Source: a virus
Length of the DNA: 6,611 nucleotides
UHGV virus genome: UHGV-0371891
Reading direction: 5' to 3' (one strand)
This document shows, one piece after another, positions 1-4,323 of this stretch. Below the pieces are notes generated by a model. That model was given only the letters and a program-made list of their open reading frames with translations, made no database searches and was not told where the DNA came from. Every line of letters begins with the position of its first letter. Within the stretch, counting starts at the first letter, position 1. A program made the translations under genes and the position numbers.

Positions 1-299
1 TAATTCATGCTTGGAATACCCACACATGTACTTGCACTCGGAAGCCCGGCGAACTTCCTGTGCGTGGTGACCTTGCATATACTCCCGCCCAAATGTATGA
101 AGCTGCTAAAGCTGGTGTACCTATTTCTGCTCAGAACATTTCTCAACTCCCCTCGGATGATTTTACTGACGAGGAGTCTTGGATTGTCCCCGTTGAATAT
201 CGTAGAGGCCAGGATATTGCTGATATTTGGAATGCTCAACGTGATGCTCGCGCTAAGATTGTAGCCGCCTACAATGAAAAGCGTAAACAGCTAGAATAA
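1..299 (+). CDS. 3' part of a roughly 104-aa hypothetical protein that wraps around the window end. It continues in frame from the ATG at 6599. An in-window alternative start is the GTG at 60.
   Basis: The frame is open from position 3 with no stop. The residue g at 6611 plus ta at 1-2 forms the codon gta, which continues MKQV into VIHAWN... The stop TAA at 297-299 overlaps the VP2 ATG (TAATG). The gene sits between VP1 and VP2 and has the same T-rich wobble bias as the core genes. Confidence 0.5.
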   Translation, partial: IHAWNTHTCTCTRKPGELPVRGDLAYTPAQMYEAAKAGVPISAQNISQLPSDDFTDEESWIVPVEYRRGQDIADIWNAQRDARAKIVAAYNEKRKQLE

Positions 300-1420
300 T
301 GGGAAAATTTTTTACAGGTGCTGGTAGTGCTCTGATTGGCGGAGCACTTTCCGGCATCTCTAATTTATTTGGTGCACATTCTCAGAATCAATCTGTTGAA
401 AAACAGCTCGCGGCGGCACGTGAAGAAGCTGAGAAAACCCGTAAATGGCAGACCTCTGAACGTGAGGCTCAAAATGATTGGAATTTTAAACTTTGGCAGG
501 CTAATAATGATTACAACACTCCTGCTGCTGTTCAGGCTCGTTTAAAAGCTGCTGGCATCAATCCCGATTTGTATGCTACTAACGGTGCCTTACAAGGTTC
601 ATCTATTCAGGCACAAGGTGGTCATACTCCATCTGGCCCTGTTGCTGATACTTCTGCTTGGAACCGTTACAGACCTATTGGAAGTATTGCCTCGCAGGCT
701 CTTGCTGATACTGCCTTGTCTGCTCAAGCAGCTAAAACCTCTGCTGAAACAGAAGGTCAAAAACACACGAATGACATTCTCTCTTCTGATGCTTCATTTC
801 GTGATGCTTTCAATCAGGGACAACTCGACACTATGGAAAGTACTATCCTTGTTAACGGTAGTAAGATCAAACTTAATGATGCGCAGGCCTCGCAAGCTCG
901 TAGTATGGTTGAACAGATCAATGCCTCTATTAAGAAGATGTCTTCTGAAATCGATCTTTTGATTTCTCAGGCAGCTGATGTTGATGACCGTATTTGGGAA
1001 CGTCATGTTCGTGTTGCTTTAGATTCGTTTATTGAGCATGGCAAGCTTAAGATATCTCAAGGACAGCTTGAAATTTCTCAGGAGCAGCTTAAGGCAGCTC
1101 TTCGTGAACTCGGAGTTAAACTACCTCTTATGACATCTGAAAAGAAACGGAATGAAGCCTTATCCTCATTCTACCAGGATTTAGGTTTCAAGGTGAATGC
1201 AGAAGAAGATCGTCTTCGTTTTGACTTAATGCAAGACATGAATTGGGATGATTTTGAGCGTACTATGCAGCAAATTCATGTTATTCTTAATGATGCTGCG
1301 GCATTCGTTCCTTTCGCAAATCCTCGTCGTCCTAGTAATTCAGGTAAGCCACGTGAAAGACATGAGACCAAAAGTGCTGATGGACAATCTAAACATGTTT
1401 ATTATGATTATTATGATTAA
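299..1420 (+). CDS. VP2: Minor capsid / DNA pilot protein (VP2-like)
   Basis: A 373-aa ORF directly downstream of the capsid gene. Its N-terminus is Gly-rich (GAGSALIGGALSGISNLFGA), followed by long Ala/Gln/Glu-rich helical or coiled-coil segments. It has strong T-ending codon bias like VP1/VP4 and a TAATG start-stop overlap with the upstream gene. The assignment rests on synteny and composition, not on a recognisable catalytic motif. Confidence 0.65.
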   Translation: MGKFFTGAGSALIGGALSGISNLFGAHSQNQSVEKQLAAAREEAEKTRKWQTSEREAQNDWNFKLWQANNDYNTPAAVQARLKAAGINPDLYATNGALQGSSIQAQGGHTPSGPVADTSAWNRYRPIGSIASQALADTALSAQAAKTSAETEGQKHTNDILSSDASFRDAFNQGQLDTMESTILVNGSKIKLNDAQASQARSMVEQINASIKKMSSEIDLLISQAADVDDRIWERHVRVALDSFIEHGKLKISQGQLEISQEQLKAALRELGVKLPLMTSEKKRNEALSSFYQDLGFKVNAEEDRLRFDLMQDMNWDDFERTMQQIHVILNDAAAFVPFANPRRPSNSGKPRERHETKSADGQSKHVYYDYYD

Positions 1421-1511: not shown

Positions 1512-1793
1512 ATGGACATTCTTTTACAGTATTTAAACATTAGGAAACAAAAACAAGAGTATGTGAAGGTAGTAGATCTACCCTGTAGTACAGTTTACCA
1601 AGCCTTGGAATTGGAGATGGCTGATAGAGCTATATCTTTTGTGGATTATATGCAACAAACATATCGATCTACATATCTTTTTGCAGGCATCATTGACGCG
1701 GAGTACTGTAATCGCACTGCTCGTGCGGTATTCTCTTACACTGACTTTTGTCAGTTAACTTGTGGACTGGGTGAAACATCCAGCATTGACTAA
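1512..1793 (+). CDS. Hypothetical 93-aa protein. Its coding status is uncertain.
   Basis: An ORF with an A/T-rich start context similar to the other genes. Its codon usage differs from the core genes: it uses aga/agg/cga/cta/gta where VP1/VP2/VP4 prefer cgt/ctt/gtt. It ends in the TAA that forms part of the ori-like motif. Confidence 0.3.
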   Translation: MDILLQYLNIRKQKQEYVKVVDLPCSTVYQALELEMADRAISFVDYMQQTYRSTYLFAGIIDAEYCNRTARAVFSYTDFCQLTCGLGETSSID

Positions 1794-1810
1794 CTTGATA
1801 TATGTAGCAC
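1792..1810 (+). promoter_or_regulatory. phiX174 origin-like sequence AACTTGATATATGTAGCAC (compare phiX ori cAACTTG|ATATTAATAACAC). Candidate Rep nick site between G1797 and A1798.
   Basis: Nine consecutive identities (ACTTGATAT) and about 15/19 overall to the phiX174 (+) origin core as I recall it. Flanked upstream by a second TAACTTG copy (1756-1762) and by the hairpin 1740-1755 (aCTGAC tttt GTCAGt). Confidence 0.45.
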
Positions 1811-1850
1811 AACTGACACATTGTTCAGCTTGTGTGAAAGATTTGAATGA

Positions 1851-2313: not shown

Positions 2314-3711
2314 ATGGCAAATATTCTTTGTGAAAAACCAAAATATATTTTGAATCCTGCTTTTAAGGATGCACTTTTGCAAACTGGAAAATATGTTTAC
2401 AACGGAGATGCAACTTTTGTACCAGAAATGCGACTTGCTGCATGGCGTTGGAACTTTCCGTATGCCCTGTTTACGCCGAAAAATATTGACTTTCAAAACA
2501 CTATCTCTTGGGAAGATAGTTTTTATGCCATTGACCGCGATGGTGATGTTGTACCTATGTTTTTGGCAATTCCGTGTCGCAAATGTGCTCTTTGTCGAAA
2601 GAGAAATGCTCGTGAATGGATGTTTCGCGCAGTCGCTGAATCGCAATCATCCCGTTCTGTTCCCTATTTTATCACTCTTACTTACAATCCCATACACCGT
2701 CCTACAGATGGTGTAGACAAAAAACATGTACAAGATTTTCTTAAACGTTTGCGTCAAATTCTTGTTAGAGACCATGGTTATGATGAGAAAATTCGGTATT
2801 TTGCCGCTGCTGAGTATGGCAGTCATACGAAGTTGCCTCATTATCATCTTATTTTGTGGAATATGCCTATTCACATGTCTTCTATGGATGTGTATCAGGT
2901 TGTTCATCAGGCTTGGTCTGTTCGAGAACGAGTTTATAACAAACTTACTCATCGCTTTGATTGGAATTATATAGGTGAATTTGGATTTGTCTATTGCAAA
3001 CCTTGCACCCAAGGTGGTATCCAGTATTGTATGAAATACATGCGTAAAGAGAGTGATATTCCTAAAGGTTGTAAACCAACTTTTTACCTGTCATCCCGCC
3101 GTGGCGGCGGTCTTGGTTATAAATGGTGTCTCGACCACATTATGTGGTTCTATCAGAATCCTGACGTTTTGACTATTGAAATTGTTGACAAATTTACAGG
3201 TGAGCGTTTTACGTCGTATATCCCTGCATATTTTCGTCGGAAACTTTATCCAACCCCATCTCTACTTGTTCGCAAAGAAATACGTGATACTATTCAGTTG
3301 GTAGACTATTTTTTATCACTACGTGCGTGTCTTTGGCAGATACATCTTCACATGCCTGATAAAGAAGTTAATGTTACTCGTAAACATCTTCATGAGAAGT
3401 TCCCTTTTTACGATTTTGATACTTGTGTGCAACGTTTCCCCCGCTTTATTTTTAGTAATGCGAAGCATTTTTATGCTACTTATGAGGAAGATTCTCTCAT
3501 TGTTATGGAACATATCCTCGAGCCTCTTCTGGCTATGCTTGAAACTTACGAATTCGATCTTAAGTATTACAAAATGATGACTGCGGCCAAGCGTGAACAT
3601 CACGAGTTTGTGAGTGAACACATGTTAACGCAACCTGAGGTTGATATAACGTATGTTAAATATAAGACAGATAACGAGAATATTCTTGCTATTTACAAAG
3701 AAACTTTATAA
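2314..3711 (+). CDS. VP4: Rolling-circle replication initiator protein (Microviridae VP4 / gene A-like, HUH endonuclease superfamily)
   Basis: Zinc-finger-like CRKCALCRK (nt 2575-2601). RCR motif 1 FITLTY (2668-2685). Motif 2 HYHLILW (2839-2859). Motif 3 with paired tyrosines YCMKYMRK (about 3025-3048), comparable to YVAKYVNK of phiX174 A protein. 465 aa. Confidence 0.9.
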   Translation: MANILCEKPKYILNPAFKDALLQTGKYVYNGDATFVPEMRLAAWRWNFPYALFTPKNIDFQNTISWEDSFYAIDRDGDVVPMFLAIPCRKCALCRKRNAREWMFRAVAESQSSRSVPYFITLTYNPIHRPTDGVDKKHVQDFLKRLRQILVRDHGYDEKIRYFAAAEYGSHTKLPHYHLILWNMPIHMSSMDVYQVVHQAWSVRERVYNKLTHRFDWNYIGEFGFVYCKPCTQGGIQYCMKYMRKESDIPKGCKPTFYLSSRRGGGLGYKWCLDHIMWFYQNPDVLTIEIVDKFTGERFTSYIPAYFRRKLYPTPSLLVRKEIRDTIQLVDYFLSLRACLWQIHLHMPDKEVNVTRKHLHEKFPFYDFDTCVQRFPRFIFSNAKHFYATYEEDSLIVMEHILEPLLAMLETYEFDLKYYKMMTAAKREHHEFVSEHMLTQPEVDITYVKYKTDNENILAIYKETL

Positions 3712-4130: not shown

Positions 4131-4323
4131 ACAGCAGATTTATAAAATTATAGAGCACGCGACTACTTTCATTCTCGGAGTAGCCGCGGCTATTCTTTTG
4201 GATAGTTGCACTGCATCTATGTCCCTGTTTTGGAAAAACCAAAATTCCTCTCAAGGCACGCAACAGTCTACTACTACGCGTGTGGATAGTTTAAAAACTC
4301 CTGATATTAATGTAAATCTTTAA
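4111..4323 (+). CDS. Small membrane-anchored or lipoprotein-like protein (66-70 aa). It is a candidate lysis or envelope-targeting protein.
   Basis: Basic n-region (MNRKMTKQQIYK), hydrophobic stretch FILGVAAAILL, then DSC and a polar Ser/Thr/Gln-rich tail. The alternative start ATG at 4123 overlaps the stop of the upstream ORF (aATGacTAA). The ORF ends 3 nt before the VP1 ATG. Confidence 0.45.
   Translation: MNRKMTKQQIYKIIEHATTFILGVAAAILLDSCTASMSLFWKNQNSSQGTQQSTTTRVDSLKTPDINVNL

Follow-up and report, generated by a model that had tools for sequence, protein, structure and literature searches.

A phiX174-Type Nick Motif in a Conserved Intergenic Block, a Probable Replication Origin of an Alpavirinae-Like Microvirus

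The Genome and Its Intergenic Region

The viral genome UHGV-0371891 is treated here as one stretch of 6,611 nucleotides, written 5' to 3' (the window; position 1 is its first base). This 6611-base window looks like a complete microvirus genome, with every large open reading frame (ORF) on the + strand. Besides the genes for the capsid protein, the replication protein (Rep, VP4) and a protein of 373 amino acids (aa), it contains several small ORFs (Table 1). Its size, its long capsid protein and the occurrence of relatives integrated in Bacteroides genomes fit an Alpavirinae-like group. The subject of this report is a conserved non-coding block between the VP2-like and Rep genes, which carries a sequence very similar to the nick site of the phiX174 replication origin. 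Among GenBank phages, the nearest Rep is that of Dulem virus 258 (51% protein identity). Closer relatives are found in IMG/VR, where 28 loci have a Rep 79-97% identical to that of the window.

Table 1. Features of the window, with positions counted from its first base.
Feature	Position	Strand	Basis or remark
373-aa ORF	299-1420	+	Matches region annotated as pilot protein VP2 in related GenBank records
93-aa accessory ORF	1512-1793	+	TAA stop (1791-1793) embedded in cTAACTTG
Hairpin 1, ACTGAC-TTTT-GTCAGT, 6 bp	1740-1755	+	Covariation
Second TAACTTG copy	1756-1762	+	Followed by TGG, not ATA; probably not functional
Conserved non-coding block, putative origin	1762-1850	+	Only non-coding part matched in GenBank phages by megablast/blastn
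Hairpin A, CTGGGTG-AAA-CATCCAG	1767-1783	+	Predicted single-stranded DNA (ssDNA) fold; ends 8 nt before nick motif
Nick-site recognition sequence AACTTGATA	1792-1800	+	9 of the first ten bases of the phiX174 origin, CAACTTGATA
Spacer TATGTAGCACA, 11 nt	1801-1811	+	A+T-rich (7/11 A+T); length fixed, sequence variable
Hairpin B, 5' arm holds ACTGACAC	1807-1835	+	Predicted ssDNA fold
Downstream element ACTGACAC	1812-1819	+	Conserved; candidate Rep-binding ('key') sequence
Rep (VP4), 465 aa, presumed to cut the motif	2314-3711	+	PF23343, 2.4e-18
Capsid protein, 756 aa	4326-6596	+	Pfam Phage_F, 1.7e-48

The Nick Motif

On the + strand, tAACTTGATATatgTAgCAC occupies 1791-1810, with the 10-mer AACTTGATAT at 1792-1801. 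Read from 1791 to 1800, tAACTTGATA lies on the strand coding for all genes and matches 9 of 10 positions of the phiX174 sequence CAACTTG|ATA (the bar marks the nick); its first base is T, not C. In NC_001422 the phiX174 origin is CAACTTG|ATATTAATAACACTATAGACCAC, with the rep_origin annotated at 4306. Set against it without gaps, 1791-1820 has 19 of 30 positions in common. The motif is located in and after the last codons of the 93-aa accessory ORF, outside the Rep gene. An initial annotation of this DNA, made from the letters alone, had proposed a phiX174-type motif as an intergenic origin, together with a second TAACTTG copy and a 6-bp hairpin. All three are found where it placed them, and the Rep start is 522 nt downstream of the motif (about 500 in that account).

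The block also resembles the ~30-nt phiX174 unit in its architecture. Both have the AACTTG|ATA nick core on the viral strand, then an 11-nt A+T-rich stretch, then a second conserved element, which is ACTGACAC in the window. This element always starts 11 nt after GATA; phiX174 shares only GAC with it, in the same register. Work by Baas and Jansz and by van Mansfeld is said to have divided the phiX174 origin into three domains and to have found that the decamer is cleaved as a single strand.

Other parts of the proposed likeness need revision. The 10-mer core is conserved in nine of its bases; T1801 is not, being G in the Dulem clade. An extended 'TA.CAC' similarity is coincidental, since this part is unconserved outside its own clade (ATGCAC in the Dulem clade, GAGCAA or GTAGTA in deeper ones), and the conserved partner of the nick site is ACTGACAC. 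The second TAACTTG is present but is not a conserved part of the origin: 16 of 25 relatives have it, others show TAACTAG, GAGCTTG, AAGCTCG or TAGCTTG, and the Dulem clade lacks it. This variability led to its rejection as a second site of nicking or termination.

How far the 10-mer exceeds chance is a separate matter. It occurs once in the window, and it is also present in 11 of 200 dinucleotide-preserving shuffles (mean 0.06, both strands); with one mismatch permitted, 129 of 200 shuffles have matches. The estimate of 6600/4^10 that accompanied the initial annotation is about ten-fold too optimistic for a sequence as AT-rich as this one, and it ignores the free choice of a nick-spanning 10-mer. 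In view of the shuffle counts and of that free choice, the 10-mer identity is only suggestive. Judged by comparison of relatives, it is conservation, not this identity, that takes the motif beyond chance.

Conservation among Close Relatives

The recognition sequence AACTTGATA is unchanged in all 25 distinct close relatives. Lack of conservation in relatives, which the initial annotation had named as evidence against its proposal, is not observed. Of the 28 IMG/VR relatives, 24 contain the region, and in these the recognition sequence is nearly invariant together with about 90 nt around it. Complete circular genomes of the clade, 18 in number (mean pairwise identity 0.77), were aligned over their whole length and scored in 30-nt bins. 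Positions 1794-1823 score 0.993, second among all bins, and 1805-1823 is a 19-nt invariant run that contains ACTGACAC. The sole higher-scoring bin, 1968-1997, is part of a separate long hairpin. In a 3.5-kb alignment of 21 genomes, the top bin is 1792-1821, at 0.972 mean pairwise identity versus 0.775 overall. The least conserved DNA in this alignment lies just upstream, at 1342-1731: here the values are 0.38-0.48, versus 0.91-0.97 for the block itself.

Part of the block overlaps the 93-aa ORF. In relatives the corresponding ORFs are 88-104 aa long, and 15 of 22 have the same TAA end; elsewhere the stop is shifted by indels, of 1 nt or more, in the hairpin A loop. Because such indels move the frame and stop of the overlapping ORF, the conservation of 1762-1793 does not come from coding. 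Coding constraint was ruled out as its cause on these grounds.

The poorly conserved segment 1342-1731 consists of the end of VP2, a gap and most of ORF 1512-1793. This ORF, which has no Pfam match, is an accessory gene that evolves fast. The Dulem 258 clade lacks it, and there ~70 nt separate the end of VP2 from the origin motif.

Conservation in Distant Relatives

When the whole genome was compared with 50,697 phage records by megablast, a single non-coding match appeared, in which 1759-1849 is 90% identical to un-annotated DNA lying between the genes for the pilot protein and Rep in Dulem virus 258. With blastn, Human gut microviridae SH-CHD12 (88%) is found too. In Dulem virus 258 the non-coding block is 90-91% identical despite 51% Rep identity, and AACTTGATA is unchanged in the Dulem 258 clade as well.

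More distant relatives were sampled by Rep homology (alignment A1). Genomes with a Rep 31-44% identical carry AACT[T/C]GATA-N11-A[C/T]TGACAC about 100 nt upstream of Rep, preceded at 7-11 nt by a hairpin of unrelated sequence. From GATA to A[C/T]TGACAC there are exactly 11 nt in every module variant, and the spacer sequence differs. All Alpavirinae-like clades have A[C/T]TGACAC; the form in most small microviruses is [A/G/T]TGACAC. The nick sequence is thus kept across very distant Rep proteins, as had been anticipated, and all comparative tests run support the proposal of a phiX174-type nick motif as an intergenic origin.

A scan of IMG/VR with AACTYGATA-N11-AYTGACAC returned at least 120 stretches. 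By our own estimate, which assumes a collection of ~6x10^10 bases, a few tens are expected by chance, and matches in long contigs without a Rep look like chance. Among the matches listed, the motif is on the Rep strand in all 75 Rep-bearing loci, and in 55 of 59 Alpavirinae-like loci it lies 18-554 nt upstream of the Rep ORF. The Rep-coding strand is the packaged strand in Microviridae.

A 28-nt position matrix was also used, with minus-strand and shuffle controls. It was run on 60 dereplicated loci picked by Rep homology alone; in 37 of them a + strand module outscores all maxima of minus strands and shuffles, and several loci under the threshold visibly carry hairpin-CTTGAT-TGACAC. When the matrix is trained on non-Bullavirinae modules alone, the experimentally mapped phiX174 origin ranks first over both strands of that genome (14.3 versus 2.9 for the next site); the 95th percentile of phiX174 shuffle maxima is 8.3. 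Counts of 8-mers over whole loci did not bring out the motif (ACTTGATA ranked 1400th), coding and composition bias being dominant.

A second ACTTGATAA is found in frame in the capsid gene of several Alpavirinae-like relatives (L040, L042-L047; e.g., L040 5158). It is probably an accident of a conserved peptide.

These data bear on the explanation that the motif is a chance resemblance without function. The shuffle counts, with matches common at one mismatch, and the accidental look of the capsid-gene copy are what such an explanation would lead one to expect. It would have to account as well for a motif that is invariant in 25 distinct relatives in a genome averaging 77% identity, that is retained while Rep identity falls to the values given above, and whose strand is constant among the matches listed. 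Chance is effectively refuted by this conservation, and we give it almost no credence.

The Hairpin Form in Small Microviruses

Contigs of 4.1-4.7 kb whose Reps are distant have CTTGAT in a hairpin loop, and the 11-nt spacer is the 3' arm. By inspection, the stems differ between genomes; examples are GCACTAAT/ATTAGTGC, GGACA/TGTCC, GGCATTA/TAATGCC, GCACCAC/GTGGTGC and GGGCACAT/ATGTGCCC, and there are others. Folded singly, 24 of 25 small-microvirus modules have energies of -5 to -14 kcal/mol. RNAalifold predicted no structure from a MAFFT alignment of 23 of these modules, because variable loop lengths misaligned the 5' arms. The module of small microviruses is 1.3-2.8 kb from the Rep start.

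Two classical gokushoviruses have this form as well. Between VP3 and ORF8 of Chp2, tctACTTGAT is enclosed by a stem of 12 perfect base pairs, AGCGTATAACAG/CTGTTATACGCT. In SpV4 the stem GGGGCATAT/ATATGCCCC encloses ACTTGTTA and is followed by ATTGACGAC.

A stem around the nick was looked for in the window clade too, and rejected: the possible pairs amount to 2-3 bp only (CTA/TAG or GC/GC; -1.6 kcal/mol). In the Dulem clade the corresponding stem is GCATT/AATGC (-5.4 kcal/mol).

Hairpins and Neighboring Elements

Taken whole, the intergenic region is far more stable when folded than its shuffles (z -7.1). In the predicted ssDNA fold, hairpins 1, A and B form, and the unpaired stretch 1784-1806 includes the nick motif. 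Hairpin 1, the 6-bp hairpin of the initial annotation, is real: among 25 relatives, compensatory changes are seen in 4 of its 6 pairs, and 98% of cells are paired. At this position a hairpin of other sequence, the G+C-rich GGGGGC-TCTT-GCCCCC, is found in the Dulem clade. A role as terminator or as origin accessory is possible.

Hairpin A shows a compensatory change in 1 of 7 pairs in the same relatives (C-G/T-A, 11 versus 14 sequences). Other clades have hairpins 7-11 nt upstream of the motif with the arms CGATTT..AAATCG, GGAC..GTCC, GGCAT..ATGCC or GGGGAG..CTCCCC. The occurrence of an upstream hairpin of unrelated sequence in every Alpavirinae-like clade points to a conserved structural accessory. 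Hairpin B has no covariation support because all 12 of its pairs are invariant in the 25 relatives; the variable base 1824 is on a bulge. Its 3' arm is not conserved in other clades, and hairpin B may therefore be clade-specific.

Two further structures lie downstream. The hairpin CGAACTT-CCC-AAGTTCG (1893-1909), ~100 nt downstream of the nick motif, is terminator-like in a scan. Its counterparts are CAAACTT-CCC-AAGTTTG in Dulem 258 and CGAGTTT-CCC-AAACTCG in SH-CHD12, so that the stem shows compensatory changes and the CCC loop is constant. The other is an imperfect hairpin of ~190 nt at 1959-2147 (ssDNA fold -41.2 kcal/mol, z -8.5), which holds the most conserved DNA of the clade in the invariant runs 1964-2007 and 2103-2127. 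At its tip are inverted AAACTATGTTAAA copies, one at 2037-2049 and its reverse complement at 2062-2074. We take these copies to resemble the XerD arm of bacterial dif, TTATGTTAAAT. The long hairpin is a candidate for a folded single-strand attP like that of CTXphi, or for a complementary-strand origin; no counterpart was detected in the Dulem 258 clade. An Rfam scan of the whole window at E <= 1 gave three sub-threshold eukaryotic microRNA or small nucleolar RNA matches, none of them at the block.

With so much structure nearby, the block might instead be a structured single-stranded element addressed not by Rep but by host priming enzymes, as the origin of the complementary (minus) strand, or by the capsid, as a packaging signal. 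The hairpins flanking it, one of which (1740-1755) covaries, and the strong fold of the intergenic region agree with this. ssDNA phages need a minus-origin-type element in non-coding DNA, as established for phiX174 and G4 (PMC5714925). We nevertheless regard such a role as unlikely. Sites read by the host should vary by host, but CTTGAT...TGACAC is common to phages of Bacteroides, Chlamydia (Chp2), Spiroplasma (SpV4) and many unknown hosts. Conservation applies here to primary sequence, which matches a site known to be cleaved by Rep, and not to structure; for a minus origin the long hairpin 1959-2147 is the better candidate. Packaging of phiX174 is coupled to the + origin, and because of this coupling a packaging role would not be an independent alternative.

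A transcription signal is another explanation, the block being a terminator for VP2 and the 93-aa ORF, or a promoter or operator of Rep, with an incidental likeness to phiX174. In most Alpavirinae-like clades the module is 18-136 nt upstream of the Rep ORF, as a promoter might be, and it is preceded by hairpins, the first of which is G+C-rich and terminator-like in the Dulem clade. The distance is much larger elsewhere: 522 nt in the window, with other conserved elements between, and more than a kilobase in small microviruses. The same 9-mer plus 8-mer is not expected across hosts with different sigma factors. In a scan for such signals, neither a sigma-70-like promoter at the motif nor a terminator-like site within 1740-1850 came up; this negative is weak because Bacteroidetes promoters are not modeled by the scan. 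Taken together, these observations make a transcription signal quite improbable.

The third alternative is a dif-like attachment site for the host XerC/D recombinases, such as has been proposed for Alpavirinae proviruses. Krupovic and Forterre described dif-like att sites at the flanks of Bacteroidetes microvirus proviruses, in the order attL-Rep-MCP-VP2-attR (PMC3091885). This order places attP in the VP2-Rep intergenic region, that is, in the same region as the block. However, the module is single and intact between VP2 and Rep in integrated relatives, namely L221 (on a 3.7-Mb Bacteroides contig) and L222 and L224 (on 18-21-kb contigs of metagenome-assembled genomes), and therefore it is not the crossover site there. 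The motif also differs from the attP of Alpavirinae proviruses and CTXphi in lacking dif-like palindromic arms, for which the AAACTATGTTAAA copies at 2037-2074 are a better candidate. The strictly lytic phages Chp2 and SpV4 carry the module too. An attachment site is thus very improbable.

The L221 element (2583-13021 of NZ_BAABXI010000001.1, Bacteroides sp. f07) is an integrated Alpavirinae-like relative with the order VP1-VP2-origin-Rep. By this order its junction would be between Rep and VP1, and not between VP2 and Rep as described for BMV1-7.

The Rep Protein

The window Rep carries HUH and two tyrosines, the latter in a Y-x-x-K-Y arrangement. Both features are shared with phiX174 protein A, and Y-x-x-K-Y agrees with the 'AKYVNK' of phiX. 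Residues H176-Y177-H178, Y238 and K241-Y242 are unchanged across 20 homologues (32-73% identity). From its sequence, the protein is presumed to be an HUH endonuclease that cuts the motif, with Y238 and Y242 as presumed catalytic tyrosines. Against Pfam at E <= 1, PF23343 is the sole match of the window Rep; Phage_GPA (PF05840) and Rep_1 (PF01446) are not matched. phiX174 protein A matches both PF23343 and Phage_GPA. The two proteins are alignable over no more than 32 residues around HUH (28% identity, E 0.03).

Comparison with Other Origins

CTTGATA is also the nick-site core of pC194-type plasmid origins (PMC10378824); the pC194 origin sequence is TTCTTATCTTGATAATAAGG (PMC7072734). As in plasmids of the pC194/pUB110 family (Rep_1), the CTTGATA of the window (1794-1800) lies in non-coding DNA upstream of rep. 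Unlike these plasmids, the window has a Rep of another Pfam family and unrelated flanks, and the plasmid origins lack ACTGACAC at +11. Plasmid Rep_1 proteins have one tyrosine plus a glutamate.

Other HUH replicons (circoviruses, geminiviruses and pT181) place the nick in a hairpin loop, the design seen in the small microvirus relatives; the window motif is without such a stable hairpin. The loop of small microviruses is CTTGAT[A/G], not the nonanucleotide of CRESS viruses, and their two-tyrosine Reps form part of another branch of the superfamily. In phiX174, as in the window, the nick has no stable hairpin around it, but the window motif, unlike that of phiX174, is flanked by hairpins.

The Block as a Viral-Strand Origin

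On its conservation, its strand, its position relative to Rep, its three-part layout and the catalytic motifs of Rep, the block 1762-1850 is very probably the viral-strand (+) rolling-circle origin, cut by VP4 between G1797 and A1798. The predicted cut position is based on phiX174 and pC194, both of which cut CTTG|ATA.

Several points weigh against this interpretation. The evidence is comparative throughout. The motif is intergenic, 522 nt upstream of Rep, not within gene A as in phiX174, and the downstream ACTGACAC has GAC alone in common with the phiX174 element ATAGACCAC. At -1.6 kcal/mol, the motif has no stable hairpin of the kind found in small microviruses. A search of phiMH2K and Chp1 revealed no clear module. 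The exact 10-mer arises in some shuffles, as noted above, and the best of 500 phiX174 shuffles scores 19.1 with the matrix, more than the 14.3 of the true origin. The segments 1964-2007 and 2103-2127 of the long hairpin are equal or slightly higher in conservation, so that conservation alone cannot single out the motif. Finally, the capsid-gene ACTTGATAA has no downstream ACTGACAC, and because such a copy exists an 8- or 9-mer alone is not diagnostic of an origin.

If the block is the + origin, replication could proceed in the following way, in which both cleavage and the part that Rep binds are inferred. Rep would bind at ACTGACAC on the double-stranded replicative form, perhaps with help from the upstream hairpin, and the 11-nt A+T-rich spacer would melt. 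Rep would then cut the + strand at AACTTG|ATA between G1797 and A1798 and become linked to the 5' phosphate of A1798. The 3'-OH of G1797 would be extended by the host polymerase. After one round, Rep would cut the regenerated site in the displaced single strand, where the motif is predicted to be unpaired (1784-1806) between hairpins A and B, and would reseal the circle for packaging.

A wider reading takes in the Alpavirinae-like phages, the Gokushovirinae including Chp2 and SpV4, and many unclassified small microviruses. Across most or all Microviridae outside the Bullavirinae, CTTGAT[A/G]-about 12 nt-TGACAC, in a hairpin or not, may serve as the viral-strand origin, recognized by Reps whose identity has fallen to 25-30%. 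The nick site in a loop would then be ancestral. The stem would have been lost separately in Alpavirinae-like phages and in phiX174, which would rely on the flanking binding element, and the location within gene A would be derived. We lean slightly towards this reading.

Microviruses are among the most abundant human gut phages. Outside the phiX174 group, a search of the available literature turned up no described origin, neither in Alpavirinae nor in Gokushovirinae, though an older mention of the Chp2 or SpV4 hairpin is possible. If true, the wider reading would allow the origin to be annotated by a one-line rule in metagenomic microvirus genomes, of which there are thousands, and vectors for Bacteroides and other hosts to be built on a minimal cis element. 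A defined cis element would in itself make such annotation possible and provide a natural start coordinate for genomes, a minimal part for ssDNA-producing vectors or phagemids in Bacteroides or Prevotella, and a VP4 nicking reaction testable with short oligonucleotides. The core CTTGAT[A/G] is kept while the Reps have diverged almost past sequence recognition, and it links phiX174, other microviruses and pC194-type plasmids. Specialists will not be greatly surprised, because the similarity of phiX174 and pC194 has long been known.

Other Observations

The Rep also contains a Cys-x-x-Cys-x-x-Cys cluster, PCRKCALCR (C88, C91 and C94; window 2575-2595), encoded 5' of the HUH core. It is unchanged in 20 Rep homologues, down to 32% identity, and may be a metal-binding or DNA-recognition element.

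One complete relative, L219 (NZ_QTJV01000041.1, 6689 bp), has a Rep 79% identical to that of the window and the same origin block. It is a stand-alone contig in the assembly of an isolate, Chitinophaga silvisoli K20C18050901, and the sequence is also in IMG/VR. It is either a clue to the host (Chitinophagaceae, Bacteroidota) or contamination.

A block of ~80 nt at 2228-2310 adjoins the Rep ATG on its upstream side. It is 77-84% identical to un-annotated DNA of bajarodmic virus 65, a Rattus microvirus and a dog-faeces microvirus. The bajarodmic counterpart sits after the capsid gene, directly before a different (hypothetical) gene, and the block looks like a movable leader or promoter cassette.

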